Virus record (IMG/VR): IMGVR_UViG_3300025858_000019
Coordinates: 15,828 to 79,827 of that record
DNA length: 64,000 nt
Reading direction: 5' to 3' (one strand)
Source of the DNA: a virus
Taxonomy: Duplodnaviria; Caudoviricetes
Below, piece after piece: positions 27,376 through 52,700 of the stretch (positions are counted from its first letter, which is position 1; each line of letters starts with the position of its first letter). Position numbers and translations under genes: made by a program. The notes beneath the pieces are model-generated. The model saw only the letters and a list, made by a program, of their open reading frames with translations, ran no database searches and was not told where the DNA came from.

Positions 27376-27379
27376 TATC

Positions 27380-30013: not shown

Positions 30014-30014
30014 T

Positions 30015-32054: not shown

Positions 32055-32056
32055 TA

Positions 32057-35000
32057 ATGGAAGATAACACACCAAAAGGAAACGAACCTAAGTATTACGA
32101 TATGATAGGTTTGTCAGGAGATGGACTGACAGTACAAGATATTGCCAAAAATCTAAAAGGAAATGAATTTGTAAAGTTAAGGCCTATATCAGAATATACA
32201 AAACCAGCCAATGTCGATGATAATACATGGCAAACTATTTATGATAGTTACCAAGACCAGGCTAATTTTATCAACTACAACAAGAATGTAGCACATCAGG
32301 AAAAGACCTATTGGGATAAAAAGAATGAAGCCAGAGGATGGGCTCAATATCTTCCTAAATCAGTATTATATCCTACCAATGAGCGTGATAATTTTTATAC
32401 TTCAGCATATGAAGGTCATAAGCCTATTCTTTCTCAGGATGATATGGCTACCTTTTCCGGTAAATATTATACCTACAATCCGGTACAGGAACAATTAGAA
32501 CCTCATGATCTTACATGGACAGAACGATTTATAAAACCTATCCTTGGAGATAAGCTTGTTATAAAACATGATGATGCCGGCAATCCTTTTGTTCTTAAAA
32601 CATCGGCAACCGACTTCTTGCAGGGAGACAATATGTTGAGTATTTGGGGTAATCAAGATCTCTACAATGAATCATGGCTAGCTCCCGTGTATAAGTTTTT
32701 CAGCGGAGCTCTCTTTAATTCCGGACAAGCATTTCATCAGATGTCTCAGATATCAGGAATGCTTACTAACAAGGTTCTTGCTCCTTTGATGGAGATGGGA
32801 TTAAATATAGAAGGTGCCAATGATAAGACAAAGCAAAAAATATTAGGCAACTATGGTTCTAAGACTATGCCAGAATCAACAAGAGGTATCTTTAATATTA
32901 GTGGTGATCATGCTGAAGGAACACAACAGCATTTTCTGTCAGAAGGTACTAAGAAAGGTATGCTTGATGCTTTGCCGGCCTGGGATAACTATTGGGTAAA
33001 CTTTTGGGAACAGCTAAAGTATGAGGCTTCAGAAGATACAGAACAAAAAGGCTGGTGGGGATCTGGGTGGTCTTTTACAAACAACATGGCCGGAATGATC
33101 GGTGAGATGGTACCTCAGATGGTAGCAGCATTCTTTACCGGTGGTGGTAGCGCTGTAGCAACGGTAGGAGCAAAGCAACTTGTAAAAGAAGGCGTGGAGC
33201 AAGGGATTAAAGCTGGAGTTAAAAAAGGTGCTGCGTCATGGTTATACAAGGAGATGCTTAAGGCTCCTTCTATGGCAATAGGAACAATGCAGGCTGTTAA
33301 TGGTGTAGTACGTTCAGCACATCAGAATGGACTATCTCCAGACGATGCAGCTATTGTCGGTGGCTTGTCAATACCTATGGTATATGCTAGTGAATCTTTA
33401 TTAGGTTCAAAATATTTAGAAGCTGTCATGGGTAGAGAATTTGGCGCTGTGGCTACAGCTAGTGTCGTCAAGAACTTTGGCAAGGCTACTACAGGAAGTA
33501 TGAATGAGAAGATCGTTAGTGAGGGTATGAAGAAATCTATAGCTGAGATGGGTATTGATAATGTGAAAGCTATGCTAAAGACAGACAAAGGAACGACGAT
33601 GTTTATGTCCAGGCTATCAAAAAATATCTCTACAGTCATTGGCAATCGTTTCGTCAAAGGTTCTCTTTATGAAGGTGCTCAGGAAGCCACAGAAGAGACT
33701 GGTTATGGAATGGTGGAAGTACTCTATGATAAGTGGATGGCTGACAAAGATGCTGTCCCGGGACAAGGGAAATATGGTACACGTATCTTCTCGGAAGAAT
33801 TTGGCTCACGACTGTTGGATAATTTTGCTGCCGGAGCTATCGGTGGAGGTTTTTTCTCGGCTATGGGAGTTGGCAAAGACCAGATAGCAGACTATAAACT
33901 GAAGAAGAAATATGGTAAGAACTTCAAGACACTGGAACAGAAAGCCAAAGATGAATATGTTGACAGCGCTATCTTTGGAAATCAGTTTGACATTTTAAAA
34001 GAGAATGCTATCTTCGGCTGGCACAAAGGACTGAGTAAAGATGCTTTTGAGACTTTGGATAAACCAGTAGTTATTCCAGATGATAAGTTTGAATCCTGGG
34101 GCCTTAAACAAGGTACAGAGTTAAAGACTAAAGGAGATCTTTATCATTATATCTTTGCTATGAATGCAGAGACCAGAAAACAGGTGTTGGAAAACCTTCC
34201 TGTAGAACTTCGTAATCCGGAATTCACCTCAAAATATGTTGGTGCTCCGGAAGTTATCAAGGGAGCTTTTGATATTGCTACTGGTATGGCCGATGTAGCC
34301 ACCCTCATTCAAGAAATAGAACGTGATCCTGATATCTCAGAAGATAAAAAGGCAAAGAAGATTGAAGAGCTGAAACAGAATTTTGAGAACAAGAAGTCTG
34401 CTATGTCATATTTTACTGATGATTATGTCGATGCACAGGGCACTAAACATGACCATAGCAAGGCTTATTATGACCTGTTAACTACTAATGCCTTAGCTAT
34501 CGCCAATAATAAGACAAGGCTGAAAAAAACTGAAGCTGATGAGATCATTGCTGATATCAATAATAAGTCCGGAGATTTCCAGACTTTCAAAGCTGAACTT
34601 CAAAAACAGTTTGACAGCAAACAAAAAATAAGTGGCACCATTCAAGATGTCATGAGTAAATCGTCTGGTTTTATGAAGAGCCTGGGAGATATCGAATCAA
34701 TAGCAAAAGAAATTGATGATACTACTATTCAGATGAATAGACTCCCTGATGGAGATAAGAAACTTTCTTCATTGGCCGGAAAGAAAAATAAGCTTTTTAA
34801 GAAGATCTCCGGGCAGTTGTCGGCTATCGACACAAAGGTAATGGCTGAAGTAACAGCGTCATTGGGAGAACTTAACAAGATTATCGGAGAGCAAGGACTG
34901 AATAAAGAAGGTGTGGAGACAGACAATATCGTTTCCCTTTCAAATATATCCGGAACTATCGATAACATAAAAAATTCTATCCGTAGAGATTCAGAACAGA

Positions 35001-38000
35001 GTGAGGAAGATTATCTTGCATCTCCTGATATCACAGCTTTAGAAAAAAAAGGCTATCAGTCGTTATCTGAAGTTTCTAAAAACATTAGCCAGGCAGTCGG
35101 TGATCTCATCAATAATAATCCTCATGTACAGGATATCCTCACCGTTCGTTCACTAGGTCAGAAGAATTCAAAATTTATGACTACCGAAGAACAGGAGTCT
35201 CTAAAATATGCAAAAGGCAGGATAGAAGAACGCAGCGCGGCAGAAAGACCTTTCAACCTTGAAGAGATGTTGATTAAACTTATTACTCTTGGAGACAAGC
35301 TCAATGATCTGGAAGGTAAAAACTATTTAAAGTCATTCTATGAACACCTTAATAAAAATGACGAAGCACAAAAACAGCTAGAGGATATTCGAAAGGACTA
35401 TAAGAAAATCATAGAAGAATATGTCTTGCCGATAACAGAATTGGTACGTAATTATAAGACAAAGAATATCGCTCCCGGCACCCCGGAGGCTGCTTTTTTA
35501 ATGAGAGCTAAGACTTTCATTGGAGAGATCGACAACAAGCTTAATGCTCTCTATGGTCAGAATGTTAGTGATGATGCTTTATTAGAACAACAAATTGCTG
35601 ATATCTCCAACGAGATAGATAAGAATTCAAAACTCTTAAGAAGTATCGAAGCCATATCAAGCATAAAGTCAAAGAACAATGTTCCTGATGATATCATCTC
35701 TTTACATCCGGAATTGCAACTTACAGAAAATGAAAAGGATCTTCATAATGCCATACTATCATCATTCAGAAATGACCTGCAGAACTCCAGAGAATTTCAT
35801 AAGGTAAATAGTGTCACTAAATATAATCGTGAGTTTCAAAAGAAGAAGGCTGATATTATTGGACAGGTTTTAAAATTTGAACTTGCAAACCAAATGGACA
35901 ATCAGGATTTCTTTACCTACCTGATGAAAAACAAGGCTCTTTATGATATGTATGTCCGGGTTCCTGATCTTGTAAAAGACCTGGAACAAAATAAAGATGT
36001 CGACAAGATCGACGAGTATTACAATGTTATGGTGAATGTACAAGAAGCTTTTTTCCGTTATGTAAAAGAAAATGGTGGATCGAAAAAGTTAGAGGCTCTT
36101 AATGATAATGTCACCAGAAAAGTTAATGAATTTTGGTTGAGTTATCTTCAAGATAATAGGACAAACCAAAGCTATGATGTAAAAGCTACTTCACAGAACG
36201 TCATTACTCCATTCAGCAAATACGATAACTACATAAATACTATCGTTGATATTCTCCGGCCTTTAGGAGTTACTAACGCACAACAGTTATTCTTTGATGA
36301 TGCTATAATGATAAAGTATCTTGACTATATCAAAAGTGTTGGAGAGAACGACAAGGTATCAGGACTGGATTATGGGAAGCTACAACAAGGCCTTATGGTG
36401 TATATGCTCAACAGCATGCAGTCTTTCATTAATACTATGGGTACTTCTTCTTCATTAAAATATCATGACCTTATCTCCAACAAAGCTGAAGACGAATATC
36501 TTTCCTATACACAGAATATGGTAATGCGTCATGTCTATAGCGTACTTGATGGAGATAAAGCCTATTATAGTGGTGATTATCCATTGGAAAATAAGAGCAT
36601 GTCGGTTCCTATGGCCCAGGGATTTCCTCATGTAGATCCTAATACACAAGATATCGACGCTAGAAGATGGCATAAGCAGCCTAATAATACCAATAGTGAT
36701 GAGATAAAGTTCATGAATGGTATTCTGATACCCGGTCCTGCAGGAACAGGGAAGTCATTTTTGTTAAGTAAGATTGTGAGAATGATAAGGAAGATGGCGA
36801 CGGCTAAACAAAATCGTATTCTCATTATTGCTCCAACTAATGAGATGGCTGAAGGTATCTATGCAGGTTCAAAAAATGCTAACGAGACAGAGAAGGATAA
36901 ACTTATTCCTGACTTCATGACATTGAATGAGCTTTATGAAAAAGGTGTCTCAAAACAGTATGACTATATTATTATCGATGAGGTGGCCCGCTATCGTGAA
37001 GATAAAAAACTTGTCTTTGCGGAATATGTCTATGCTAATCCCAACACAAAATTTATATTCACCGGTGATGTCTTCCAGGCAACAGATCCTACCAGTGAAG
37101 AGTTTAAAAAGAAAGATGAGATGAGTGTCGTTCCCCAGGAATGGGTGCCTCATACAACACCTATCGATGAATCATTCAGAACTGATATTGATCAGGTGCA
37201 TAACTATCTGAATATGCTCTATCGTTCTTTTACTCCTACCATATCTGTTTCATTAAAACCTATCACTACTTATCATGACAGTTCAAATAGTATGGGTGTT
37301 CGTCAATATGCCAGCCCTCAGATTATCATAGAGAATTGGAGAAAAGATTCAGAAGAAAGCGTTTTGATATTCTCTAGTCGTAGTGAAGCATTTGAGTTTT
37401 ATAAAAACAATCCAGAACTGTCTCCGGCCAGCTTGAGAAATATTAGGTTTATCTATGCCATTGATAAAGATGGTGTCGAAGAAGAACTTAATGATCCTAA
37501 AAATGCTGGACAGTTTAAAGAGTTTGACAATAAGACTATACAGGGTGAACAAAAGGATAATGTCTATGTGGCAATAGAAAAACCCGAGACAATGATGGAG
37601 TTAAGCATATTCTATACAGCAGCTTCCCGGGCAAAAAGGTTTATCGCGGTACCTGGCAATAAGTCTGTTGAAGATGCAACATCTATCATTGACTATGCTG
37701 ATAATAACTCTTCTGGTAAGAAGACAGAAGCTGAACAGGGAGATATTATGGCAGAGCGGTTTAATAAGATGCTCCTTAGCATTGAAGACCTTAATAATAC
37801 AAGTAAGGTTATCGCCAAGCCGAAAGAAAAAGCTGAACCTAAACAAGAAACTCCAGAAACTCAACAGGAAGAAACTGAAGCTGAAGAAGAAAAAACAGAA
37901 CCTGTCAAGGTCGAAAAAAAGGTCAAAGAGCCTAAAAAGAATAAAGGTGTAAAAATTATCAAGGGTGATGAGATTGTGAATATTTCAGAATCTGTTATTG

Positions 38001-41000
38001 ATAAAAATGAAGATGCTAGTGAAATAGAACAGCCTACTGCTAAAGTTCCTGGTGACAATACAGCATTAAGATTTGCTGATGGACAGGCAACGCTAGGAGG
38101 TTTTGTTATTCCTTATGACGCAAAATTTGTAGGTAAGACTGGTGACCAGATATTGGGTACTCAGGAATATAAAAACCTGGCTGCTGAACGATATAATAAA
38201 TTAAAACAACATCTTCTTAATCCCAATGAAAATTTAAAGTTTGTCTTGAAAGATGCTGATATGATGGAGCTTGATCCAGAGACTCAGACATACAAGAGAA
38301 ACAAAAAAATGAAGATGTTGGTTCTCACCGATGGACTCATAGATTATGCAATCTATTATCAGCCGGTGCTAAAAGATGAAAATACTATTGATGATCTTAC
38401 CAAAGAAAATAAAGGAAAGATTATCAAAAAATATACAAAAGATGATAGTCCTAACTTTAAGGCTTTAAATGAGTGGAATGTTCACCTTGCCTCTATGTGG
38501 ACAGATCAGTCAGTGAAGATAAGAAGTATTGAATATGGCCGCCCAAATGTAAGGTATGAGTATACTATTGAAGAGGATAAGAAAAAATACACTACACGTT
38601 TTTTCTCTGAATTAATGGATGAGGTTTCTGGAAAGAATTTGCATGTTCTAATCCAGGATAATAGCTTCAAACTTCTCAGTAAAGGAAACTACGAAAAAGC
38701 GCTTATTAAAAAGGATATCATTAATGGATTTCCACATACCTTTATCACTATCAGGGATGTTGTTACAAACAAAACTTCTATTGTTGATGTTACTAATCGA
38801 ACAGTTACGAATAGTGATTTAAAAGGATATCTTACAGCATTATCCCAGGTAACGAAATTATCCGAACTTAATGAATCACAAGCTTTCCAATTTATATTAC
38901 AGAATGCAAAAAGGATAAGAAACTTTTATGGAGAAAAATTTTTCAAGGATCATTTTGATATTAAGTCTACCAGTACAGCTACTTATGTGTTCATTAAGTC
39001 AGAAACAAAATCTCCGGAAGAGCAGTTAGTTGAAAAGATAGGTCATATAAAACAGATCTTTCAATATATTTCTAAGGATTTAGATAAGCAACGTGCTTTA
39101 TTTGTTCCTTTCAGAGTTGACCAAAGAGGAGAGAAAGTTATTGATACTGACATTAATAAATTCCTTACCCGGAGTACTTCTATAGAACAACCCAATATTT
39201 ATGTGTCATTTCAAGATAATATTAAACAGGAGCCAAAATCAAAAGGATTAAGCAGTGTTCCTTTTATGAATAAAAGAGAAGACACAAAAATAGTCTATGA
39301 CCTGCAGGCACAGAAAGATTATTATGAGAGGGTTTTCGGAAAGCAGTCAGTAGCAAAAGAACGTTTTTCTATATCATCAAAAAATATCTTGTCTTTAGTC
39401 AATGCTGACGAAAGAGTAGATGAGCTTATTGCCAATGGTGAAGTAGTTCGTGATGGAGATTCTTATGCCTATGATGGAAAGAAATATACCAAAGAGGAAC
39501 TTCAACAGCAGTTCTATGTCAACCTTGATGAAACATATATGGGCCTTGTGAGAGGTCTTTCTACTTATCTGCAAGAGATCGATGGTGGTATAGCTAAAAA
39601 TGCTACTAAACATGAGGCGGTACATATTGCCTTTAACCTTTTGAATAAAAAAGAACGTGGCTATCTTCTCCGGGAAGCAAAAGCACAGATGCATGCTGAT
39701 GAAGGTATCGATGTTAATAATATCAGCAATTACGACGCAGAAGAATATATTGCTGAACTAAATGAAGGTAGGAAGAAGATTATCAATACCAAAGTAAAGT
39801 CAGCAAATATTGTCACACGAATATTAAACTGGCTAAAAAACTTGTTTGATGCAGTTCGGAATTATTACTATACTCCTGTTACTTTCCTTAATGATCTCAA
39901 TGAGGGTAAATTTATAAATCGTTACAACGACCTTCTGGCTATTCAGAACAATGAGGTTCATGGGATGGGCGACAGGATTCCTTTTACAAAAGAGATGCTG
40001 GATGCTTCTGGATATATCCCGGCTGTCACTACAAAGAAAAAAGGTATGCTTAACACTACTGAATTAGTTAGAGAGTTGGGTGGTACTACCATATTAAATC
40101 ATGTCCGGGCACAAATAGCTCGTAAAATGCGTAGCTATTCTGCATATAGTACCATAAAGGATATCAATGAAAGTCCTTATCAGGATCTGAATATCACTCA
40201 ATCTATCAATGCAGCACGTACAGAATTGAATATCCAATTAGAAGAGATGATCCTTTTAGGAGAACGTTCCGGAGCCAAATTGTTTACAAAAGATGGCGAT
40301 CGTATCGTATATCATAAAATTCGTGACTATGAAAACATTATTGTTCCGGAAGGAGAAACAGAAGAGAAATTCAAAAACACTCTCTTGACCTATCAGGCAG
40401 TACATAAGACTATCAATAATGATAGGATAATGAAATCTGTTCTCCATACATTAAACATAAAATATGATACGAATGAGAACTCCCAGCGTGAGGCTTTTGC
40501 AGGTTTTAACTGGAGTAGTACCATGGAACAGTACAAATACATGGATCCAGACCTTAAAACATTAATGACTACTATTCCCTATTATACATGGAGAGTAAGC
40601 AAAGATGGTGTCATTAGTATTAATGAGAATGATTCCATGAATTATCATTATGACTTTGCAAGGATGATGGATGTTAATGTCCTCAATAATGCTTTGTTGT
40701 CTGTCGCTAAAGATACCATTGAAATTATGCAGAATACCCCGGGAAAATTTATGGATATTTTCTTTGAAGTGTTATTGGATAAAATAGCTTTAAGTACTAT
40801 CAAGGGAGAAGTAGTTACTGATGTGACACCAAATATATTACTTTCTTTTTATAATGATTTTGGCCGTTCCTATTTAGAAGATAGGAATCATGTTGGACTA
40901 CATAATATCTTATCTGTAATACAGAACAAATTTGATACTGCCAAGATAGTTTCTGAAATAGAAAAGAAGCGTTTTTATATAATAAAAAATATGATCACGT

Positions 41001-44000
41001 CTTTTGAAGCTCATTATACCAATTCTATAAGTCCAAACTACATTAAGATAGATACGGATATTGACTGGAATGGAAAGAAGTCTTTTGAAATAAAGAACCA
41101 AACGCGGTCCGAGATACAGGAATTTAAAGAAGACTATCTCAATGGTGTTCGTTCTATCTATGCAGGTGGAAAACCAAAAGAAGGATATTCCCGGATGTTG
41201 ATTGGCGGTAATTATAATGGTAAGAGAAACAATATTGTTGCAAATTACAATACGGATAATATTGAAACTTTTGAGATTGGTACTGGCCGTTATAATACCA
41301 ATGAAAAGGAGTATATGTTTCTTCCAAAAAATTCTCCACGATTGATAACTTTTAATGGTAAAAATTTTGAGTTTGTAAAAGAGAATAATAGCACATTAAG
41401 CATTCGTGATATCAGGACAGCATTCCATAATATAAATATGAATGTTCCTGAGTCGGTGATAAAACTTATTCTAAGCGGTAAGAGAAACACCGGCACATCA
41501 AATAACATATTCCTACCTAACAATCAAGATCGTAACAGGGATAGAGGAAAGACAGCCTTAGCCAATCTATTAGGATATATGTATCTCACATTGGCAAACA
41601 ATGCTAATGCTAACAAACCTTTTACCGAAGATATCAAGCGTTATATTGGTAATATTTCTGTTGATAAAGACATCAGCGAAGAGCTTTCGAATATTAATGA
41701 TGAACTAGAGGGTTTAAATAGTGATCTTGCTTTTGGTAGCATGGAGCCACTGGAAGAAGTTCGGAGTAAGCAAAGAATAGAATATCTTGTTTCCTTAAAG
41801 AAAGAGCTGGAAGACACTCCTCAGCTGCTAAATTTTTATAAACAGATAACCGATCTTGCCGAAGTTCATTATCTTGTCAATGCCGGAAGCCGGAGACAAT
41901 ACTTTCGTTCTGTTAATAATGAAAAACACCCAAAGACAGTATTGTCAGATTTTACTTCAAAGATGTTCCGCAGTGGATTAAAAAATGCAAAGGGATATAT
42001 TAATAATGAGATACGTAAAGCAGAAGACAATAATATTGAGTTAGGCAATAACCCTATCATTGAAAATGGAGAAGTCAATGTTCCTATTTTTCACACCAAT
42101 GTAGAAGATGTTATTTTAAGGGAACTCACCGGGAAAAAAGGTCGGTTACGTATCAGGGAAAAAAGTGATTATAATGATCAGGATTATGTTAACGATGCCA
42201 TTGATAGTTTTAATAATTCCATTGAAAAGAATAGTACTCTCAACAGGAATACCAACAAGCGATATAATATTTTTTATGAACCGTACGGTGATAGAAACAA
42301 GATCTCAACATTTAGCCTGATAACGAAGTTAGGTGTTGACAATATCGTTGAATATACAAAAGATGGTATGACTATCAATGATAGTTTTATTAATGACCTG
42401 ATGCAGAAAAGTATTGACTATCGTTTGCAACAGGCAAAGATAGTGTTGGCAAAATATATGGCTTTTGAAAAAGATGGTGTTACTCCATTCTTTCAACAGA
42501 AACATTATTCCAGCAAGATAGCCAATATTGAATATGATCTGGACAAGATCTTTGACCAGTTCAATATCGATGGCAAGCCAGAAGCTATCAGCGCTATCAT
42601 AGAAGATATCAATGATAACATCGCGGGCCAGATGAAGAAGATGAAAATGACTGCAGAAGAATTTGCTATTTATATGCAGACGTTAGGTATCAACGAATTT
42701 ATGGGGTTTTCCGCTGAAAGTGATTTTGTATTAAGGGATATTCAGGTTGGCAATACTATTAAATCTAAAGTATTGGTTGGTAAAGCTGTATTCAATCCTG
42801 AAGATAATATCTTTACATTGGATAATGTTTCTAGCTGGATCAAAGCTAAAAACTTCAGTGGAAAGAATAAGGTAAAGAATATGTCTATTGTCAGGAACTT
42901 TATGTTCATGGAGCAATATAAAGAACTATGTCAATACCTTAAGTCCATTGAACATAAGATGCCTAAAAAAGTAGCTGACGCATATGGTAGTTGGAAGAAC
43001 AAATATATCAAAGTCAGAAAGACAGAAAAGGGCGCTGGTTCTATAGAAAAACAAATAGCCGGGAAAGAAAGTTATGAATGGAATAAGTTCTATGAATCCT
43101 TTATGTATATGACATATCTCTTAAATGATAGTGTCTCTATGCTGACAACCGGTGATGCTACCAGCTTTAAAAATCCATGGGATAAGATGATCAGGAACTC
43201 TCAGGCAGGTGCTGCCATGGGAGTAGCCTTTCAGACAGGAGAAGTCAATACCCTTCCAAGGTATATGCTTGAAACAAGGATAGAAGATACCAAGATAAGC
43301 TATGACCTGGCTTCCTTTCTTACAAACAAACCCTGTAATGAAAAAGAATACAATAGTACCTATTTCGTTAATGTAGTCACAGCTATCTTCATGTCAAACA
43401 GCGTAGGAAATGGTATCATAGATCCTACTAAGGGAGTAATGAAATTAGTAGGCACCGGGATAGATATGAGGACCGGCCGTAACAATACCAGGAAACTTTC
43501 CGTTATGTCCATTAATCATAATGTGGTAAAGAATTTCTCATGGGGTAAACAGGTTCATGATGAGCAACTGGCTTCATTAGGAACTTTTGAAAAGAATGGC
43601 ATGGAATTGTCATTCCTTGATTATTTCTATCAGCAGATGGATAATGGTAGGTCTTTCTATGAAGCAGCACAGGATGTTGCCTATGAGATCATGGAGGTAC
43701 GTAGGAAGAGTAATATGCAGATAGATCCTCTTTCAACTTTTAACAGCATTATCGTTACCGGTGAGGCTATAAAGAACGAGAGGGGTATGCTTAATTATTA
43801 TGCTCCTGATGGAACACAACTTAACATGAAACATCTAAAAGCTCCCGGTACTTATAGTTCTCTTTTAAAGGCTAGTTTTGATATGGAGAATTATATTGTC
43901 CAGCAAGATCCGGTTAACGAGTCGAAAGAAGTTACTATGATGTCGCAAAGCAATGACCAGATAAATTATATCGACAAAGATATTGCCAGGGAAATACATG

Positions 44001-47000
44001 AGGCTAATGCTGAAAAGTCAAGACTTATCATAAAAGATATTGCTAGCAAACTTAATGGCTCCAAGGCATTAAAATTTGCCAGGAGAGAGGCAAGCAGAAA
44101 TATAGAAGATTGGGGTCGAGACACTGAGATGTTGCATATGATCCAATCAGGACTTTCTAATGTCAACCCTGTTATTGCCTATGAACTAATGAAAACTGGT
44201 ATGAGTATGTTCGATCGTGGTGTTCGGATGTCAAGGTATGGTACTAAAAATGTCCAGTTCCCGGGTAATGAGATAAATATCTTCAAGGTTTATGATACAT
44301 ATACTGAGGGTTTCTTTTATGTACAGAATGATGATTTCTATAGTAAATATGATAAAAACCCACGATATAAAAATCTTACTAAGAATGGAGTACAGGAAGG
44401 ATTGAATCATTATAAGATTTATGGCAAGATAAAAAATGATAGTGGCGAAGATGTAGAAGTAGATCTGGAAGAAATGCTAGGTAAGGACAGGGGTGATAGT
44501 ATGGCATATACAAGAGAAGAACTATTGGCTATGGCAACAAGGATTGAACCGGCACAGATAGTAGTTCCAGCTCATGTCTTTGAAAAGTTTATAGAGCCAA
44601 GAGTCTCTAATATCTTTAAAGATTTACCTAAAGATTATACATTAAGTGACTTGTTTACAATACAGATAGATGGTCCTGCCGGTGGGAAGGTAGATGTCAA
44701 TGTGATGTCAATATTTAATAAATATGAAGATCCTCTTGATGCTTTTGATGAACTAAGAAACTTATTGGAAGATTATATCAATGATAAGGAATTATTGAAA
44801 GAATATGAGGAAAATGTGTTGAATTATTTCTGGTCTTTGAATAAGATGTTGAATACTTTCAGTGGCCGTATTCCAGGTACCGCTCCCTCTTCTTATTTTA
44901 TAGGAAAGATTGTAGGTATCGATCATGATGGTGGCCGTATCTATATCCCTTCTAAAAAGAATACACTTGATAACTCCGACTTTGACATTGACCAGTTGAC
45001 AACCTATCTCTACGATATTATCAACGATAACGATATGTTATACATTGAGGGAGATAGTGACAATGCGGAGATGAAGATATTATTGATAGATAATGATAAC
45101 CTTACCAGGTTACATAAAATGTATTCAGATCCGAAGAATCTTGTAAAGATATTATCACCTGTAGCTGTAAGTCCAGAACTTAAAGAAAAGATAAAAGAAG
45201 AAAAAGCTGGAAAAGCTTATTTTGCTAATGATATTCGTACCGGAGCCAAAGTATTCTATGAGTCACATCTAGGAAAGGAGTTGGTATCACATTTTGCTTC
45301 GTCGATGTCAGCAGTTTTGAGAACCTTACAAATGCAAAAGGCAGAAGATTTTCCTGCATTGCTATACAATGATAGTGACATACAGGAACGTTTGTCAGTG
45401 ATATTACAAAGCATAACACAGACTCTTCAGCTGTCAGTTGATAATGCAAAGCATGCTGGACTGGAGGGATTAGGTATCAATCAGGAAACGTCAAGCCTTG
45501 TAATAGCTCTAACTGTCAGCGCCTATAATATCAATAACATTGCTGAGATGCTGAATAACCCCTATGTAAAATCTGTAATAAGAAAGATTTCAAACAGCAG
45601 AGATCCCAATAGTGTACAACTGAACATTGCTGAAGAATTTTCCATGGCAAAAGAAAACATTGAAAAGAATGCCGATGAAGATGTTTTTGCTGAAAGAATG
45701 GAAAAAGAAAAGGTTGCCGTAGAAGAGAAACTTGCATATTTCAAATCCAGAAAAGAACAACTCACAATAGTACAAGATGATGAAAGTTCTTTTGAGACAG
45801 CTTATAACACCCTTGATGTATTAGATATGCTTGAACAGGCCGATATCGACGCTGAACGTTATGGCATTGAACCTAATGAGGGGTATGAAAAGTTGAAGAA
45901 GGAAATCAAAGAAGAAATTAAAAATAGTAACTTCGAACAGAAGAAGGAAAAATATCTTAAGAAATTCTTTGACCGCTGGATCCGTTATTATTCAGAACGT
46001 CTTAATGATAAAAATTGGCAGACTTATGTCGATGAGTCATGGAGTAAGATAGATAATTCACGTAAGGCTATTAATACTATACAGGAAGCTATATGGTTAT
46101 CAGCAGGCATCAGGAACTTTTCTACAGTATTATCTGTAAAAGATAGCACAGAACCCGGAGCATGGCCTATGTTTCAAAAATTAAGAAATATAGAAAAAGC
46201 TTTGAATGTAACTTTAAAAGGTTTCTTGTCCGGACAGGATTATGATCCTAAAGTATCGGAGATGAACCTTCGTTATATGGAAGCTAAAAAATTGAGTGCC
46301 AAGTCTTATGTTGATGTTACACAAAAACAAATCAATAATGACATTACGAAAGTCTTTCCAATACTTTCCAGATACAATTTAAATCTTACCGGACAACCTG
46401 GTGTATCGTCAGCTATATTAAAACAAGCATTGAAGACCAACATTCCAGTAAAAATATTCATGGGTAAAGGTTATTTAAGAAAAGATCTACAGGGTAATAA
46501 TATCTATTCCGGAGAACATTTAGGTTCATTGGCGGATATGCATGAAGATGTTGACAATATCAGCAACATAGAAAATTTGAAGTCAAAGATCGTTCTCGTC
46601 GATGGAAAATATAAAGCTCCTGTTTCTGAAGGTATCAAAAATTCAGATATTGTCGTGAACTTTTATTCCGAAGACTCATTTGAAAAAAAATGGGCTTATA
46701 AGAATAAGAGAGTGGTGGATATCAATATTAAAGATGGTTTTGGTAAGATCGCTGAAACACTTCAGAGAGAACTGGACAAGGCGGTAGAAGAATATAAATC
46801 TATTGTTCCTAATAAAGAACCGACTATATTTATCAATACAGAGTTCATCACCACGACCAATCGTATAAAGAAATCTCAATATGAGATACACAAAGAACTT
46901 AATGATAAAGCTATGGAACAGCTTAATGTTCCGGCACTGGTAAGAGCTAATCCTGATATCATGCAATATGTAAAAATATTCGACATGAAGATCGACTATC

Positions 47001-49723
47001 TACAAAATAACTTCTTTGTCTATTCTAAACCGGCTATGGCTATGTATGAAAGAACTTTCAACATGATAGGACAGAACTTTGCCTATAATGAAAAGCAATT
47101 TATACATACTACTAGCGGACTACAAAGAGCTTCTTTGTTATATGCACTCAGAAAACTTTCAGATGAAGGATTGAGACTTAATATTTTTGATTATACCGAT
47201 AGTGCTACCAATGAAGTTCTACAGAACATTGATCCGGCCAATATACAACACTTAGAATATTTTCATCTCAAATTTCCTGATTATATCAAAGCCTTAAAAC
47301 AAAGTAATGAGGCTATCAATAATAAACTTTTCCAACGTCTCTCTGTCACTTCTAAGGGTGTCATAGCATTTGAAGATACCGATCTCACTCCGGAACTGGA
47401 AGAGATGTATTCAAATGAATTTAAAGAATTGCAACGCACCAATGGTAACCTTGCTAAGAATCTTGCTTTTTATACATTACTTCATTATGGTTATGAATAT
47501 AGTCCAGGTAGTTTAAGGAAATTTATGGGTGATGAATATTGGAAACTTATTGATAAGCATATGGGAAGTTTTTCCGACAAAGTAATGAATGATGCAGAAT
47601 TTCAAAAGAATATGCTGAATATTATGCCTTTGAATATCATCATAGAAGATAATAGTTTTAATCCTATGTTGCTTCACCGTAAGAAAAAAGACGAGACATT
47701 ACAGGATCTTATGAGTCGCGGACAGGAGATGTATTTAAGGAAACGTTCTCTCCCGGGCAAAAAACTTAATGAGGTTGTCAGGATCGTCGATAATGGAAAA
47801 GAGTTAACAGAAGAGATATTAGGCAATGTTTATCCTAACTATCTGAAAGTAATGCAATATGATGAGAGCAGCGCCAAAAAACTTTATAATGAAAGTGAGA
47901 TAGAAAAAGACGAAAGAGGAAATATTAAGGCTTTCGTTCCTGAGATCGTACATCCTACAGAACCAAGCCAGATGGATCAGCTTTATAAAGATGGCACTAT
48001 TACAAAAACATTTTATAGTGGTCATTCATATATCAAAGGACAGCCGGTATATTTCTTAGGATTAAAAGGTAAGATAGTAGAAGTTATGAGGGAATCAATC
48101 AAGATGCAGATCGATGATAATGAGTCTCTATCTTCCCGGGCCGACGAAGATGTTTATGAATTCAGACAAGGTGTGGTTCAGTTTATGAACATGCTTTCTA
48201 ATAAAGCCAATGAAGAATTTATGTTAGATCGTAAAAATTTCAATAGGCTTAAATTAGATGAAGCCGATGTTCTGACTTTTAATGACAATCTTTTTAATAA
48301 GGCACAACTTGTTTCAGTTATCACTCCGGCATTATTGAAAGTTTATAAGCATGCTGAACTTGATGAATTTGTGGAAAAGAATCGCCAATATATAAAATCT
48401 AAGCTAGGACCTAAAACTGATCTTCAGATTAAAACAATCCTGATGTCGGCACTCAATTCAAAAGATATTATGAATGTTTTTGATGTCATAGGTTTTAGTT
48501 CTGAGGCTATCAGTGTTGTCAATGATACATGGAAGTCATTGTTGAAAGGTCTCTATAAAACAGCATTAGGCAAGATTGAGAAAGGCAAGATGAAGGAATT
48601 AGAAGAACAGGGATATCTATCACAGAAGATAAAACTAAGTTCGCTGATTTCAAACATCATGGCTATCGGAATGGTGTCAGAGACATTACACGAAGATCTT
48701 GTTGGCATTCCTGATTTTAGAGCTACCCGAGGAGTTAAAAAAGAACAGGGAATACCTACTCATATCCTTCCGGATGCTTTTGCAGAATATCTATCATTGC
48801 CAGCAACTGAATTAGCAACAAAGGAATTTTCCAGCTCTTATATTAAAGGTTATGGTTCTATAAAAGAGGGAATGACAAAAAACATTGTTGACGAACAGAA
48901 CAATGTTCTTACTACTATTTATATCACTGGCAGAAAAGAAGTTGTCGATCATGGTCAGACAAGTTATTTGTTTACTTTCAAATTCTTGCAGGATGTAAAA
49001 AGTAAGGCACTTAATGATATCGTTACGGTATCTGAAGATCAGCAGTCTTATATAGTGAATGGTGTCGAATATCGTCGTGTGACAGCTGATATCTATAAAA
49101 AAGAAGATTATGAGGGTGTTGATATTGACTATTCATTTATTGGTACACAGTTAAGCCTAATGTCGGAATATACTATCACAGGAGAACAACCTATAGGTTT
49201 ACATAAAGAGTTATTTGCTCATGGCACCATGAGTCAGTTCTTTACCAGTGATGACACCAAATTGATAGATCATCTTAATGACCAGATAACAAAACAGATG
49301 AAATATTCTAAGACTCCCGACATAAAATATTATGCTGAAGTACAGGTATTAGATCAGCAGAATAAAAAGGGAGGAAAAATAGATATCTTGGCTATTATTA
49401 ATGAAGGTACTACAGAAGAAAAGGCTATTATTATTGATATTAAATCTTCAAAACATAGCTATAATGATATCAATGCTGAAACAAAAAATAAACATCTTCA
49501 GCAGTTACAGGAATACGTAAGAATAGTAGGTTCTAATAATGGCTTTACAAAATCTATGGAAGTTGTTGGCGCGTTCATTATGCCAATACAATATACCAGG
49601 AACGATAATTCTAAACCGGCACATGTTATTAAAACGGTGAAAGGTGGAGAAAAGATTATCGTAAAAGATCAGATTACAAATATTACTTTTGAAGATATGG
49701 TTAACAAACAAAATTTGTGCTAA
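32057..49723 (+). CDS. giant virion polyprotein: SF1 helicase + zincin + crAss-type DNA-dependent RNA polymerase + PD-(D/E)xK nuclease
   Basis: 5888 aa. GPAGTGKS at 36734, IIDE at ~36971, TGDVFQ at 37061, YTAASRA at ~37612; HEAVH at 39611; RIPG and DFDID at 44978-44992; KID..IIDIK..QLQEY at 49379-49516. Confidence 0.88.
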   Translation: MEDNTPKGNEPKYYDMIGLSGDGLTVQDIAKNLKGNEFVKLRPISEYTKPANVDDNTWQTIYDSYQDQANFINYNKNVAHQEKTYWDKKNEARGWAQYLPKSVLYPTNERDNFYTSAYEGHKPILSQDDMATFSGKYYTYNPVQEQLEPHDLTWTERFIKPILGDKLVIKHDDAGNPFVLKTSATDFLQGDNMLSIWGNQDLYNESWLAPVYKFFSGALFNSGQAFHQMSQISGMLTNKVLAPLMEMGLNIEGANDKTKQKILGNYGSKTMPESTRGIFNISGDHAEGTQQHFLSEGTKKGMLDALPAWDNYWVNFWEQLKYEASEDTEQKGWWGSGWSFTNNMAGMIGEMVPQMVAAFFTGGGSAVATVGAKQLVKEGVEQGIKAGVKKGAASWLYKEMLKAPSMAIGTMQAVNGVVRSAHQNGLSPDDAAIVGGLSIPMVYASESLLGSKYLEAVMGREFGAVATASVVKNFGKATTGSMNEKIVSEGMKKSIAEMGIDNVKAMLKTDKGTTMFMSRLSKNISTVIGNRFVKGSLYEGAQEATEETGYGMVEVLYDKWMADKDAVPGQGKYGTRIFSEEFGSRLLDNFAAGAIGGGFFSAMGVGKDQIADYKLKKKYGKNFKTLEQKAKDEYVDSAIFGNQFDILKENAIFGWHKGLSKDAFETLDKPVVIPDDKFESWGLKQGTELKTKGDLYHYIFAMNAETRKQVLENLPVELRNPEFTSKYVGAPEVIKGAFDIATGMADVATLIQEIERDPDISEDKKAKKIEELKQNFENKKSAMSYFTDDYVDAQGTKHDHSKAYYDLLTTNALAIANNKTRLKKTEADEIIADINNKSGDFQTFKAELQKQFDSKQKISGTIQDVMSKSSGFMKSLGDIESIAKEIDDTTIQMNRLPDGDKKLSSLAGKKNKLFKKISGQLSAIDTKVMAEVTASLGELNKIIGEQGLNKEGVETDNIVSLSNISGTIDNIKNSIRRDSEQSEEDYLASPDITALEKKGYQSLSEVSKNISQAVGDLINNNPHVQDILTVRSLGQKNSKFMTTEEQESLKYAKGRIEERSAAERPFNLEEMLIKLITLGDKLNDLEGKNYLKSFYEHLNKNDEAQKQLEDIRKDYKKIIEEYVLPITELVRNYKTKNIAPGTPEAAFLMRAKTFIGEIDNKLNALYGQNVSDDALLEQQIADISNEIDKNSKLLRSIEAISSIKSKNNVPDDIISLHPELQLTENEKDLHNAILSSFRNDLQNSREFHKVNSVTKYNREFQKKKADIIGQVLKFELANQMDNQDFFTYLMKNKALYDMYVRVPDLVKDLEQNKDVDKIDEYYNVMVNVQEAFFRYVKENGGSKKLEALNDNVTRKVNEFWLSYLQDNRTNQSYDVKATSQNVITPFSKYDNYINTIVDILRPLGVTNAQQLFFDDAIMIKYLDYIKSVGENDKVSGLDYGKLQQGLMVYMLNSMQSFINTMGTSSSLKYHDLISNKAEDEYLSYTQNMVMRHVYSVLDGDKAYYSGDYPLENKSMSVPMAQGFPHVDPNTQDIDARRWHKQPNNTNSDEIKFMNGILIPGPAGTGKSFLLSKIVRMIRKMATAKQNRILIIAPTNEMAEGIYAGSKNANETEKDKLIPDFMTLNELYEKGVSKQYDYIIIDEVARYREDKKLVFAEYVYANPNTKFIFTGDVFQATDPTSEEFKKKDEMSVVPQEWVPHTTPIDESFRTDIDQVHNYLNMLYRSFTPTISVSLKPITTYHDSSNSMGVRQYASPQIIIENWRKDSEESVLIFSSRSEAFEFYKNNPELSPASLRNIRFIYAIDKDGVEEELNDPKNAGQFKEFDNKTIQGEQKDNVYVAIEKPETMMELSIFYTAASRAKRFIAVPGNKSVEDATSIIDYADNNSSGKKTEAEQGDIMAERFNKMLLSIEDLNNTSKVIAKPKEKAEPKQETPETQQEETEAEEEKTEPVKVEKKVKEPKKNKGVKIIKGDEIVNISESVIDKNEDASEIEQPTAKVPGDNTALRFADGQATLGGFVIPYDAKFVGKTGDQILGTQEYKNLAAERYNKLKQHLLNPNENLKFVLKDADMMELDPETQTYKRNKKMKMLVLTDGLIDYAIYYQPVLKDENTIDDLTKENKGKIIKKYTKDDSPNFKALNEWNVHLASMWTDQSVKIRSIEYGRPNVRYEYTIEEDKKKYTTRFFSELMDEVSGKNLHVLIQDNSFKLLSKGNYEKALIKKDIINGFPHTFITIRDVVTNKTSIVDVTNRTVTNSDLKGYLTALSQVTKLSELNESQAFQFILQNAKRIRNFYGEKFFKDHFDIKSTSTATYVFIKSETKSPEEQLVEKIGHIKQIFQYISKDLDKQRALFVPFRVDQRGEKVIDTDINKFLTRSTSIEQPNIYVSFQDNIKQEPKSKGLSSVPFMNKREDTKIVYDLQAQKDYYERVFGKQSVAKERFSISSKNILSLVNADERVDELIANGEVVRDGDSYAYDGKKYTKEELQQQFYVNLDETYMGLVRGLSTYLQEIDGGIAKNATKHEAVHIAFNLLNKKERGYLLREAKAQMHADEGIDVNNISNYDAEEYIAELNEGRKKIINTKVKSANIVTRILNWLKNLFDAVRNYYYTPVTFLNDLNEGKFINRYNDLLAIQNNEVHGMGDRIPFTKEMLDASGYIPAVTTKKKGMLNTTELVRELGGTTILNHVRAQIARKMRSYSAYSTIKDINESPYQDLNITQSINAARTELNIQLEEMILLGERSGAKLFTKDGDRIVYHKIRDYENIIVPEGETEEKFKNTLLTYQAVHKTINNDRIMKSVLHTLNIKYDTNENSQREAFAGFNWSSTMEQYKYMDPDLKTLMTTIPYYTWRVSKDGVISINENDSMNYHYDFARMMDVNVLNNALLSVAKDTIEIMQNTPGKFMDIFFEVLLDKIALSTIKGEVVTDVTPNILLSFYNDFGRSYLEDRNHVGLHNILSVIQNKFDTAKIVSEIEKKRFYIIKNMITSFEAHYTNSISPNYIKIDTDIDWNGKKSFEIKNQTRSEIQEFKEDYLNGVRSIYAGGKPKEGYSRMLIGGNYNGKRNNIVANYNTDNIETFEIGTGRYNTNEKEYMFLPKNSPRLITFNGKNFEFVKENNSTLSIRDIRTAFHNINMNVPESVIKLILSGKRNTGTSNNIFLPNNQDRNRDRGKTALANLLGYMYLTLANNANANKPFTEDIKRYIGNISVDKDISEELSNINDELEGLNSDLAFGSMEPLEEVRSKQRIEYLVSLKKELEDTPQLLNFYKQITDLAEVHYLVNAGSRRQYFRSVNNEKHPKTVLSDFTSKMFRSGLKNAKGYINNEIRKAEDNNIELGNNPIIENGEVNVPIFHTNVEDVILRELTGKKGRLRIREKSDYNDQDYVNDAIDSFNNSIEKNSTLNRNTNKRYNIFYEPYGDRNKISTFSLITKLGVDNIVEYTKDGMTINDSFINDLMQKSIDYRLQQAKIVLAKYMAFEKDGVTPFFQQKHYSSKIANIEYDLDKIFDQFNIDGKPEAISAIIEDINDNIAGQMKKMKMTAEEFAIYMQTLGINEFMGFSAESDFVLRDIQVGNTIKSKVLVGKAVFNPEDNIFTLDNVSSWIKAKNFSGKNKVKNMSIVRNFMFMEQYKELCQYLKSIEHKMPKKVADAYGSWKNKYIKVRKTEKGAGSIEKQIAGKESYEWNKFYESFMYMTYLLNDSVSMLTTGDATSFKNPWDKMIRNSQAGAAMGVAFQTGEVNTLPRYMLETRIEDTKISYDLASFLTNKPCNEKEYNSTYFVNVVTAIFMSNSVGNGIIDPTKGVMKLVGTGIDMRTGRNNTRKLSVMSINHNVVKNFSWGKQVHDEQLASLGTFEKNGMELSFLDYFYQQMDNGRSFYEAAQDVAYEIMEVRRKSNMQIDPLSTFNSIIVTGEAIKNERGMLNYYAPDGTQLNMKHLKAPGTYSSLLKASFDMENYIVQQDPVNESKEVTMMSQSNDQINYIDKDIAREIHEANAEKSRLIIKDIASKLNGSKALKFARREASRNIEDWGRDTEMLHMIQSGLSNVNPVIAYELMKTGMSMFDRGVRMSRYGTKNVQFPGNEINIFKVYDTYTEGFFYVQNDDFYSKYDKNPRYKNLTKNGVQEGLNHYKIYGKIKNDSGEDVEVDLEEMLGKDRGDSMAYTREELLAMATRIEPAQIVVPAHVFEKFIEPRVSNIFKDLPKDYTLSDLFTIQIDGPAGGKVDVNVMSIFNKYEDPLDAFDELRNLLEDYINDKELLKEYEENVLNYFWSLNKMLNTFSGRIPGTAPSSYFIGKIVGIDHDGGRIYIPSKKNTLDNSDFDIDQLTTYLYDIINDNDMLYIEGDSDNAEMKILLIDNDNLTRLHKMYSDPKNLVKILSPVAVSPELKEKIKEEKAGKAYFANDIRTGAKVFYESHLGKELVSHFASSMSAVLRTLQMQKAEDFPALLYNDSDIQERLSVILQSITQTLQLSVDNAKHAGLEGLGINQETSSLVIALTVSAYNINNIAEMLNNPYVKSVIRKISNSRDPNSVQLNIAEEFSMAKENIEKNADEDVFAERMEKEKVAVEEKLAYFKSRKEQLTIVQDDESSFETAYNTLDVLDMLEQADIDAERYGIEPNEGYEKLKKEIKEEIKNSNFEQKKEKYLKKFFDRWIRYYSERLNDKNWQTYVDESWSKIDNSRKAINTIQEAIWLSAGIRNFSTVLSVKDSTEPGAWPMFQKLRNIEKALNVTLKGFLSGQDYDPKVSEMNLRYMEAKKLSAKSYVDVTQKQINNDITKVFPILSRYNLNLTGQPGVSSAILKQALKTNIPVKIFMGKGYLRKDLQGNNIYSGEHLGSLADMHEDVDNISNIENLKSKIVLVDGKYKAPVSEGIKNSDIVVNFYSEDSFEKKWAYKNKRVVDINIKDGFGKIAETLQRELDKAVEEYKSIVPNKEPTIFINTEFITTTNRIKKSQYEIHKELNDKAMEQLNVPALVRANPDIMQYVKIFDMKIDYLQNNFFVYSKPAMAMYERTFNMIGQNFAYNEKQFIHTTSGLQRASLLYALRKLSDEGLRLNIFDYTDSATNEVLQNIDPANIQHLEYFHLKFPDYIKALKQSNEAINNKLFQRLSVTSKGVIAFEDTDLTPELEEMYSNEFKELQRTNGNLAKNLAFYTLLHYGYEYSPGSLRKFMGDEYWKLIDKHMGSFSDKVMNDAEFQKNMLNIMPLNIIIEDNSFNPMLLHRKKKDETLQDLMSRGQEMYLRKRSLPGKKLNEVVRIVDNGKELTEEILGNVYPNYLKVMQYDESSAKKLYNESEIEKDERGNIKAFVPEIVHPTEPSQMDQLYKDGTITKTFYSGHSYIKGQPVYFLGLKGKIVEVMRESIKMQIDDNESLSSRADEDVYEFRQGVVQFMNMLSNKANEEFMLDRKNFNRLKLDEADVLTFNDNLFNKAQLVSVITPALLKVYKHAELDEFVEKNRQYIKSKLGPKTDLQIKTILMSALNSKDIMNVFDVIGFSSEAISVVNDTWKSLLKGLYKTALGKIEKGKMKELEEQGYLSQKIKLSSLISNIMAIGMVSETLHEDLVGIPDFRATRGVKKEQGIPTHILPDAFAEYLSLPATELATKEFSSSYIKGYGSIKEGMTKNIVDEQNNVLTTIYITGRKEVVDHGQTSYLFTFKFLQDVKSKALNDIVTVSEDQQSYIVNGVEYRRVTADIYKKEDYEGVDIDYSFIGTQLSLMSEYTITGEQPIGLHKELFAHGTMSQFFTSDDTKLIDHLNDQITKQMKYSKTPDIKYYAEVQVLDQQNKKGGKIDILAIINEGTTEEKAIIIDIKSSKHSYNDINAETKNKHLQQLQEYVRIVGSNNGFTKSMEVVGAFIMPIQYTRNDNSKPAHVIKTVKGGEKIIVKDQITNITFEDMVNKQNLC

Positions 49724-52700
49724 TGAACTGTCCAAATAAAAACACCGCAGAATGGAAGTATCTCTCTTATGCAATAGGAGAAGATGCAGCCATGGGAGTC
49801 TTTCATAGAAATGGAAACCAACTCCCGACACTGGAAGAGATATCAACAAGATATCCTAGAACAATAAGCACGCCCAATAATTCAAAGGTAGGTCTTGCTT
49901 TTATGACCTTGGCTGAAGGATTTAAACAACGTCTTGGTGTCGATTATAAGATAGTATCTGAAAATGACATCAAAGAAAATGGAAAGAAGTATCTAGAGAC
50001 TAATCCGGACTCTCTTTCTATTATTGATAAGAATGGTATCATTAATTTTATCAGCGAACGTATCAATGATGAGACTTTATTTCATGAATTTGCTCATCCG
50101 ATAATGAGATCCATCAGAAACTTTAACAAGCCATTATTTGATTCTTTAGTAGAAGAGACAGCCAGAGGTGATCAGGAATGGTTTGAAGGTATCAGGGATA
50201 GGATAAAAGACGAATATCCGGAACTGACAGAATATGATGATGTCAATGAAGAAACATTGGTATACATCATGGGAAGAGGTGCTATGAAGATGAATTCCAA
50301 TATCAGTGCTTTTGAAAAGTTATGGAACATGATATCCGACTATATAAAGACATTATTGCATATTGACTTCAACACAAAAGAACTATCTCCAGAGACAACA
50401 TTGCAGGATCTTAGTTTTCTTATGATTCATGGAACCGGAAAGATAGAACTTAACAACTGGACCGGGACCGAGCAGAAGATGAAAAATCTTAATGACTTTG
50501 AACGTGGCATGATAGCAGATATCAATGACACCTCTACCAAAACTATTGACCAGATGATTGTTGACAATATCTTTAATAGTGCTAACCAGGCAAGACATAA
50601 AGGTAATATAAAAATTTCCGGCCGAAACTTTTTCTTTGAGCGATGGGATGGCGCCAATGGCAAAAGCTGGACTGAAGTGAAAGATATCGGATTAAAGAAA
50701 AAATGGGTTAATGATGTTGTCCTTAATTATATCAAAGAGAGCGACAAGACAGCGCTGACAAATCTTAAAAAGATTATGAATTCTGGAATAAACCTCAAAG
50801 AACTTCCAGAAGATATATCAAAGTATTTTACTCCGATGGCTATCAGCGATCTTGTCCTGGCTACTGGTTATGAGGTAGGCACAAGAATATATAACTTGAA
50901 AGAGTTTTCGGAATTATATCCTGAGTTTAGGAGTATGTATTCTCCAGAAACAGAATCCAATAGTCTTCATGTTATCGTTCATGGAGATTATACAGATGCT
51001 AAGACAGGCAAAAAAAATTATGATATTTCTCTTGTCGATTTAAATCTTACTTCCTATGAAATAGCTAATTCCTACAAAGGAGATAACCTCTTCAAGGGAA
51101 TGAATATTTCTAATGAAGATCTTCGCGCGCTTAACTTTGACACCTCTGATACGGTAAAATGTATGTCTAATGCCAAGAAACTTACTGTCAGTCTCATGGC
51201 TATGAAGATGAAAAGTATCAATCCTGATATCTCTTTTAGAAGAGCTGGGGCCTTGTATATCAACAGGAATAATAAAAGCTATGAGCATAATTCTATTAAT
51301 TATGCCTATGCTCAACTTGATGTATGGAAAAACAATATCAAAAAGTTATCAAAAGATGATGGTTTTGTCAATGCACTTCCAAGTTCATTAGCTTCAGTAG
51401 TTCTCAATAACAGTATCTATAATCAGGAGTTCGCTCCGGATTTTATTATGATGTTGGAAAACCAAATGCTGGACAACAAAAATGAGATGAAGAAAAATGA
51501 AGACCGGGAGTCTCCTACATTGGAACATCAGATAGAGGTATTAAGACGTTATAAGGAAACCGGTGATGAGAATATCCTCTATGAGATGTTACGAAGAAGA
51601 AAAAAATATTTGGAGTTTGAGGCGCGCAGGGCAAAGACTGATGTTACCGAAGACGAACAATATGTCACTATCTCTATCATCATGAACAATATGGTTTCTG
51701 GTTGGAACACAAAATTTACTAATCGTGTAAAAGGAGAAAATGGACTAGGTTTTTATTTTCGTACAATGTATAATGAAGGCAATGAAGTCATTCAAAACTT
51801 TTCATTACAACTTGCCAGGTCAGAAGAGATAAAACAACAAAAGTATAACTCTTATGCTGATTGGAAAAAAGTTCTTACAAAAGAGATGGAGGCTAAATAT
51901 GGCAGTGCTATTGGAAAGATAGAGAAAATATTTACCACTATCGGGCCACAACTGTCAGAAAAGCTTATGAAGTTCAGCGACAATCATCCTAATTTTTATG
52001 TTAAAGACCGTAAGGGTAATCTATTAAAAGATAAAAATGGCAATCCTCTTCGGAAATTTTTAGGAGAGATATATTTTGAAAAGTCAGAAATTACCGATGC
52101 ATTAGGTTTAACAGCAGAAGATCTCTCTATAGGTAAAATGGTAGTCGACAAGATTGAAGAATATGTGAAGGATATGTACCGACATAATATTATGATGGAC
52201 CCTACTGGCTATTATAAAAAGAATGAGAAGACCGGTACCTATGACCTCGATATGGAAAAGATAGAAAAGCATGTCAATGAAACTTATGATAACAACTGGA
52301 CACCAGGTATGCTTCCTTTGATATCAAAATCAACTGCAGAAAGAGTAAACTCAGGACAGATAAAGAGTGCTGTAGGAAACTTCTTTAGAAAGTCTCGTAG
52401 ACAGTATGAGATGTTTGATGATATGCTGGACCAGATCTATGAATATGATGATAGTAGGGTACGTTCTTTATTCGCTAATCAGCTTTATCGTAATAATGGT
52501 TCTATCAATAACCGTAGAGCAAATATGCTTGGCTTGGTGATGGAAGGTGATGGTTCCTATGTCTATGATGAAAGAACTAAAAATACCAACGACAACCTCT
52601 CAGTGAATATTGAAACAATCATGGACTATTTTTCTATGGATGTCATTAATAAGACTATTGATGAACAATATACGGTTCCAGCTTATGAAGATGCAAAAGT

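Follow-up and report, generated by a model that had tools for sequence, protein, structure and literature searches.

What does a phage make of one uninterrupted open reading frame (ORF) of 5,888 amino acids (aa)? We addressed this question for the ORF P0001, encoded in a 64,000-nucleotide (nt) stretch of viral DNA, hereafter the window, which comprises bases 15828–79827 of the 79,827-bp IMG/VR virus record IMGVR_UViG_3300025858_000019 (estimated to be 91% complete). A first-pass annotation had described the ORF as a virion polyprotein joining RNA polymerase (RNAP), helicase, protease and nuclease. Our analysis makes it likely that P0001 is a giant, fused form of the virion RNAP protein, encoded by a remote crAss-like phage of activated sludge. 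The ORF listing returned the single ORF 32057–49723 of 5,888 aa exactly as first described, and the positions given for GPAGTGKS (aa 1560, nt 36734), HEAVH (aa 2519, nt 39611), SGRIPG (aa 4269, nt 44861) and DFDID (aa 4308, nt 44978) were likewise exact. The features discussed below are as follows.

32057..49723, + strand: whole ORF P0001, probable giant virion-RNAP fusion, 5,888 aa (ORF listing, translation)
32528..34372, + strand: N-terminal conserved region, aa 158–772, with Gly/Ala-rich, moderately hydrophobic stretches at aa 344–373 and 431–451 (BLASTP to the relatives P0003 and P0005)
36713..37636, + strand: superfamily 1 (SF1; RecD/Dda/Pif1-like) helicase core, aa ~1553–1860, motifs I–VI (Pfam above cut-off, motif conservation)
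37799..37951, + strand: charged Lys/Glu/Pro-rich linker, aa ~1915–1965 (sequence reading)
39536..39907, + strand: HEAVH zincin-like domain, aa ~2494–2617, with H2519, E2520, H2523 and E2563 (conserved motif, hhalign)
41729..48376, + strand: predicted RNAP module, aa ~3225–5440, similar in length to phi14:2 gp66 (boundaries taken from relatives with split and fused forms)
43196..45697, + strand: predicted two-barrel catalytic core, aa 3714–4547, matching gp66 895–1713 (AlphaFold2, Foldseek, VIA-align, hhalign)
44978..44992, + strand: DFDID, predicted catalytic metal-binding motif, aa 4308–4312 (alignment with gp66 1361-DFDID-1365)
48374..49720, + strand: lineage-specific C-terminal extension, aa 5440–5888, with a PD-(D/E)xK-like core at aa ~5700–5850 (motifs, sub-threshold Pfam match, ESM Atlas)
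49723..54198, + strand: gp65-type zincin-like gene, HEFAH near aa 121 (homology over full length, start context)

An RNA polymerase core and a helicase in one frame

The identity of P0001 is carried by the region around DFDID, which had been read as an RNAP. An AlphaFold2 (AF2) model of aa 3540–4640, built on an 18-sequence alignment (predicted local distance difference test (pLDDT) 60, predicted template modelling score (pTM) 0.60), adopts a two-barrel fold whose best match is phi14:2 gp66, as that reading required. Foldseek against the PDB ranked 6vr4_A, the gp66 structure, first (E = 8.1e-12, probability 1.00), followed by QDE-1, RDR2 and then β′ subunits. VIA-align superposed the model on 6vr4_A with a Z of 15.7 over 586 residues (aa 3714–4547 against gp66 895–1713), compared with a Z of about 11 for the RNA interference polymerases QDE-1 and RDR2. 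Supporting this assignment, phi14:2 gp66 (GenBank gp077) matched the family alignment in hhalign at 93.5% probability with E = 2.2e-7 over 240 columns, with P0001 4263–4508 paired to gp66 1314–1658. This span takes in DFDID and, by the definitions of 10.1101/2020.03.07.982082, both the bridge helix and the trigger loop. Among 11 giant proteins compared, R4271-x-P4273, N4302 and D4308-x-D4310-I-D4312 are invariant, as are D4462 and N4463 of the DNAK motif. The relationship is a distant one: gp66 was reached by hhalign and fold comparison only, and not by BLAST, phmmer or an hmmsearch profile over PDB sequences, and a tblastn search of 50,697 phage records with the RNAP region gave no match. These results collectively identify the DFDID region, as modeled, as a crAss-type two-barrel RNAP, for which RNA synthesis is predicted.

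The window comes from a metagenome assembly, and the same modules are separate genes in other phages, so that an assembly or frameshift artefact fusing several genes had to be considered. DNA of the window was found in activated-sludge metagenomes, and contigs from two activated-sludge runs, possibly the window's own source, contain the full-length ORF in identical form. For a third run, belonging to another study, 40 differences were listed, of which 35 fall at third codon positions and 33 are synonymous; no insertions or deletions were reported among them. Moreover, uninterrupted ORFs of 6,381–6,829 aa with their parts in the same order occur in ten divergent relatives. An artefact is hardly credible against this background. 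Because the contigs are identical and the variation consists of substitutions that are mostly synonymous, the giant frame is a real gene under purifying selection; judged by these comparisons, it is truly coding and not an accident of assembly.

The ORF lies at the end of a co-directed gene run (818..57804). Upstream on the same strand, PHROGs identified a crAss-type large terminase (9808–11859), a portal (11856–14504) and a major head protein (15670–17112). The large terminase of the window matches crAss-like phages only, at ~24% identity.

N-terminal to the polymerase, P0001 carries the SF1 helicase that the first-pass annotation had proposed. Pfam AAA_19, AAA_30 and Viral_helicase1 all scored above cut-off in this region (AAA_19 at 32.2 against a cut-off of 25.1), and motifs I, Ia, II, III, IV, V and VI occur in order and are invariant or nearly so in the 11 giants, including GxxGxGK at 1560–66, DE at 1641–42, GD..Q at 1670–74, R1708, G1830 and TA.SRA at 1854–59. 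The closest PDB sequences to the helicase family profile are 9kwf_B, RecD (3e-10), Pif1 and Dda, while RecD2 is the best NCBIfam model, far under its cut-off; tblastn of the helicase region against the 50,697 phage records gave no match. Taken together, the Pfam scores, invariant motifs and PDB matches indicate an intact, RecD/Dda-like SF1 helicase. The charged linker named in the first-pass annotation was located downstream as a Lys/Glu/Pro stretch. Of the seven non-synonymous differences seen in the independent sludge sample, four are clustered at window 37703–37723 (aa 1883–1888), just past the helicase core where the charged stretch starts.

Module limits and flanking domains

Relatives were collected in two ways. 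A HMMER scan with aa 3650–4849 against 1.84 billion representatives returned 17 relatives, among them proteins of 6,675, 6,719, 3,643 and 2,705 aa, and a conserved-core profile led to 45 IMG/VR loci, to which the upstream DNA was then added. Eight IMG/VR contigs of 63–93 kb each contain an uninterrupted ORF of 6,381–6,829 aa, and with P0003 and P0005 they make up the ten relatives of that size range and common part order. By BLASTP, P0003 and P0005 are collinear with P0001 through the N-terminal region, P-loop helicase, HExxH region, RNAP core and post-RNAP region. Giant size is thus the rule within this clade as sampled by these ORFs. Other searches yielded little: PHROGs gave nothing useful for any part of P0001 apart from two weak P-loop matches, word-based homologue searches returned P0001 itself or nothing, a related-locus search with a single protein as query had no match, and neither did a 3,000-aa query against the relatives' records, a search in which long divergent queries fail.

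The limits of the modules are marked by relatives in which the parts are arranged differently. P0006 (L002:560-11491; 3,643 aa) holds RNAP and zincin in one protein without the N-terminal half; it aligns from its own residue 61 with P0001 aa 3284, through RNAP and zincin, and its length is close to that of gp66 plus gp65 (2,180 + 1,421 aa). At the other end, homology of P0001 with its relatives stops near aa 5440. Because of the alignment and length of P0006 and of this end of homology, we place module boundaries at ~aa 3225 and 5440. The comparison suggests a layout of an N-terminal half with helicase and HEAVH (aa 1 to ~3220, so that ~3,220 aa precede the RNAP module in the reading frame), RNAP (~3225–5440) and a nuclease-like end (5440–5888), followed by the zincin gene. 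The fused and split forms thereby supply natural module limits (~aa 3225, 5440) for expression constructs.

The protease of the first-pass annotation turned out to be two distinct things. HEAVH, read there as the zincin, lies in a conserved zincin-like domain: H2519, E2520, H2523 and the downstream E2563, some 40 residues on, are invariant in five aligned giants, and the site conforms to HExxH in 7 of the 11. By hhalign the domain matches the HEAFH region of phage cr118_1 (95.3%, E = 2.4e-8) and, moderately, a gp65-type zincin profile (71%, E = 3.8e-5); it has no Pfam or PDB profile match. On this conservation, HEAVH marks a zincin-like domain distinct from and upstream of the classic crAss zincin, which lies instead in the next ORF. 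That gene probably starts with ATG 49723, which overlaps the TAA stop of P0001 (TAATG), and not with the GTG 49717 chosen by the ORF finder (listed as 49717-54198); it uses a different frame, in which the open stretch begins only at 49705. Along its entire length it shows homology to the relatives' giants, in their C-terminal ~1,400 aa (E = 1e-100 to 1e-86). It also matches phi14:2 GenBank gp076, the zincin-bearing gp65 of the published account, with E = 1.6e-8. All ten relatives have a second HExxH some 830–1,290 aa past the DxDxD motif; the gp65-type module is fused to RNAP in all ten and is its own ORF in this phage. Because the next ORF is homologous to the relatives' C-terminal ends and carries HEFAH, the classic crAss zincin is, by homology, a separate and here translationally coupled gene. 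A PEIVH motif, aligned with the relatives' second HExxH by global MAFFT, was considered as a decayed zincin and rejected, the next ORF being the true counterpart.

In place of that module, P0001 ends in 449 aa with no similarity in any compared relative's locus or elsewhere in the genome. The terminal PD-(D/E)xK domain of the first-pass annotation is borne out to the extent that GKIDIL, IIDIKS and QQLQEY (aa ~5773–5820) occur in RecB-like PD-(D/E)xK order, but PDDEXK_1, at 15.1 bits for aa 5772–5846 (E = 0.023), falls short of the Pfam gathering score of 22. In the ESM Atlas, 22 of 30 neighbours of this end are PDDEXK_1 clusters at 0.94, which serves as a lead only, and no homologue was matched in the PDB, NCBIfam or large protein collections. 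The C-terminal end is therefore rated a probable PD-(D/E)xK nuclease.

At the opposite end, aa 158–772 are conserved in P0003 and P0005 (BLASTP E about 1e-26 to 1e-28) and have no Pfam or PHROG match. The region had been called a hydrophobic segment (aa 342–605). It was found where described, and its composition is Gly/Ala-rich and moderately, not strongly, hydrophobic: the highest 19-residue Kyte-Doolittle (KD) mean is 1.39, and with no such window above 1.5 there is no transmembrane-grade segment in the protein. For eight of the ten relatives, hydropathy peaks (19-residue window, KD 1.5–2.0) not at the N-terminus but in the final ~150 residues of the zincin-type module; examples from the C-terminal ~400 aa are aa 6283 of L009g and aa 6537 of L012g. 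Membrane insertion may, on these hydropathy values, be a property of the relatives' zincin-type module.

With the parts in place, we considered whether P0001 might stay unpackaged and act as an intracellular transcription and replication factory, pairing a non-virion RNAP with a repair-type helicase and nuclease. A helicase joined to PD-(D/E)xK recalls RecB/AddAB-type repair enzymes, and the homologue in cr118_1 is labelled "exonuclease V" in RefSeq. However, none of the relatives compared has the nuclease end, the gene ends a late structural operon, after terminase, portal and capsid genes that share its strand, a gp65-type virion zincin gene comes next, and the phi14:2 homologues are virion proteins detected by mass spectrometry. 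An unpackaged P0001 is accordingly quite improbable, and we continue with the virion RNAP.

A possible self-contained starter of transcription

It is an unsolved question how transcription by crAss-type virion polymerases gets under way on double-stranded DNA. The homologues of gp65, gp66 and gp67 are virion proteins, gp66 is far more active in transcription on single-stranded or denatured DNA than on double-stranded DNA, and no motif for early promoters was found (all 10.1101/2020.03.07.982082). By analogy with phi14:2, P0001 would be made late, packed as capsid cargo and ejected with the DNA, and the ejected RNAP would then transcribe the early genes; the "injected entry machine" of the first-pass annotation would, on the same footing, follow from the phi14:2 homologues. 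The role of the fused helicase is probably to provide single-stranded template, which this polymerase class prefers. We propose this role of template opener because gp66 prefers single-stranded or denatured templates and QDE-1 needs a helicase. The zincin-like domains may process the chain, as in the polyvalent-protein model (PMC5512222).

The linkage of helicase and polymerase extends beyond the giants. In 10 of 12 larger crAss-like contigs from IMG/VR (L016–L047, 85–226 kb, with TAG or TGA inside frames and thus partly stop-recoded), the helicase profile finds a match on the same strand as the DxDxD motif and 8–12.5 kb upstream of it; in P0001 the corresponding distance is 8.2 kb. These positions suggest that the helicase–RNAP linkage reaches zeta-like phages. 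The linkage thus recurs in three arrangements: the helicase is N-terminal in this clade, C-terminal in cr118_1 and, in zeta-like contigs, 8–12.5 kb upstream. This recurrence gives a testable idea of how transcription begins. Tentatively, and with more doubt than conviction, we propose that a large, mostly undescribed branch of crAss-like phages ejects its polymerase together with its own SF1 helicase as a self-contained starter that makes single-stranded template, and that this phage also captured a PD-(D/E)xK nuclease at the polymerase/zincin junction, splitting the gene. If true, the starter reading would explain how virion polymerases without promoters begin on double-stranded phage DNA.

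The helicase could instead serve chiefly as a DNA-internalisation motor, pulling the genome from the capsid after the cargo has been ejected and not melting template for the RNAP. RecD/Dda-type SF1 enzymes are single-strand DNA translocases, and RecD, Pif1 and Dda are the closest PDB sequences here; entry driven by transcription or by enzymes occurs in T7 and N4. In addition, the helicase lies ~2,700 aa from the RNAP core in this clade and on the other side of the RNAP in cr118_1, so that close coupling to the active site is not conserved. Against a motor stand the need of such translocases for a single-stranded end or gap, and the single-stranded-template preference of gp66-type RNAPs, which is a simpler reason for the linkage. 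We regard a chiefly DNA-pulling helicase as unlikely, though by no means negligible.

Several observations weigh against the reading of P0001 as a giant fused virion RNAP with these parts. The RNAP model is of middling confidence (pLDDT 60), and for the HEAVH region AF2 gave no usable model (pLDDT 40). The nuclease call is based on motifs, a sub-threshold Pfam match and language-model neighbours. No homology of the N-terminal ~3,200 aa to phi14:2 gp67 (GenBank gp078) was detected, and hhalign of the other family segments against phi14:2 gp076–gp081 gave nothing above 36%. Since phi14:2 works without a fused helicase, with no helicase-profile match anywhere in its genome, the helicase is not essential to this polymerase class. 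Finally, three short activated-sludge metatranscriptome contigs (window 41117–41257, 45311–45461 and 45615–45765) are near-identical to the giant ORF, with one difference overall, but they are a weak hint of expression that could be carried-over DNA and cannot show transcription.

Comparison with known systems

The first-pass annotation presented the giant multi-domain fusion as new, which is not borne out. In some crAss-like phages the RNAP and two neighbouring virion proteins form one enormous fused polyprotein that is probably cleaved and in which the gp65 orthologues carry a zincin (10.1101/2020.03.07.982082), and a review gives crAss RNAP genes of "up to ~6000 aa" (PMC10136315). With the RNAP-core profile, we found giant RNAP frames of 4,105–4,949 aa in RefSeq Crassvirales; the frames carrying the core measure 4,949 aa in cr118_1, 4,559 in cr55_1, 4,105 in Rudgehvirus, 2,252 in cr106_1 and 2,184 in phi14:2. 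Size and fusion as such are already known, and cr118_1 gp14 joins HExxH, DFDID and helicase. In the literature consulted, read as text without figures and without Yutin 2018, no passage naming a helicase as part of the crAss RNAP protein was found.

The best characterized counterpart is phi14:2 gp66 (PDB 6VR4; GenBank Phi14:2_gp077, 2,180 aa). It shares with P0001 the two-barrel fold and, in sequence, the DFDID motif, the RIP...SS...DFDID block and, in the trigger-loop region, the DNAK motif; its gene likewise stands at the end of the structural module with the zincin protein next. The two share ~17% identity over structurally aligned residues and no BLAST-level similarity, and the chain of P0001 is 2.7 times longer and includes a helicase, for which phi14:2 has no profile match.

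Closest in composition is cr118_1 gp14 (NC_055872.1 KNV30_gp14, Suoliviridae; 4,946 aa, 16381–31221, L064:2382-17222). As in P0001, one chain holds HEAFH at aa 1734, DFDID at aa 3209 and, with GYAGTGKT at aa 4471, a RecD-like SF1 helicase that the profile matches with E = 1.1e-14; a gp65-like gene comes next. However, the helicase lies C-terminal to the RNAP in gp14 (aa 4471) and N-terminal in P0001 (aa 1560); gp14 is also ~940 aa shorter, and no PD-(D/E)xK-like end was seen in it. Its RefSeq label "exonuclease V" reflects the helicase only and masks a virion RNAP.

The gp65+gp66+gp67 polyprotein (Yutin 2018), as far as it is described in the paper that cites it (10.1101/2020.03.07.982082), resembles the relatives' 6,381–6,829-aa ORFs in that these likewise include the zincin module. 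Compared with the polyprotein as described there, P0001 is without that module, and the 450-aa nuclease-like piece occupies its place. More broadly, polyvalent proteins, including N4-type virion RNAPs with MPTase domains (Iyer et al. 2017, PMC5512222), also carry many enzymatic domains per chain among virion genes. Zincin-like peptidases are a recurrent hub in them, and a role in the first minutes of invasion has been proposed (PMC5512222). None of the Pfam polyvalent-protein domains scored in P0001; one ESM neighbour, at rank 26, carried LPD1, a lead only. The N4 enzyme itself is a T7-like single-subunit polymerase with a fold unrelated to the two-barrel enzyme of P0001. A two-barrel RNAP within a giant virion protein is found in P23-45, where it is fused to the tape measure (5,002 aa; 10.1101/2022.12.01.518664), in another phage lineage and with another fusion partner. 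The related non-virion RNAPs 8f5m_B (P74 gp62) and 8f72_B (P32 gp64) appear in the structural match list at a Z of about 9, much weaker than gp66. Set beside these systems, P0001 stands out by where its helicase lies, by a zincin gene split off from it and by its added nuclease-like end.

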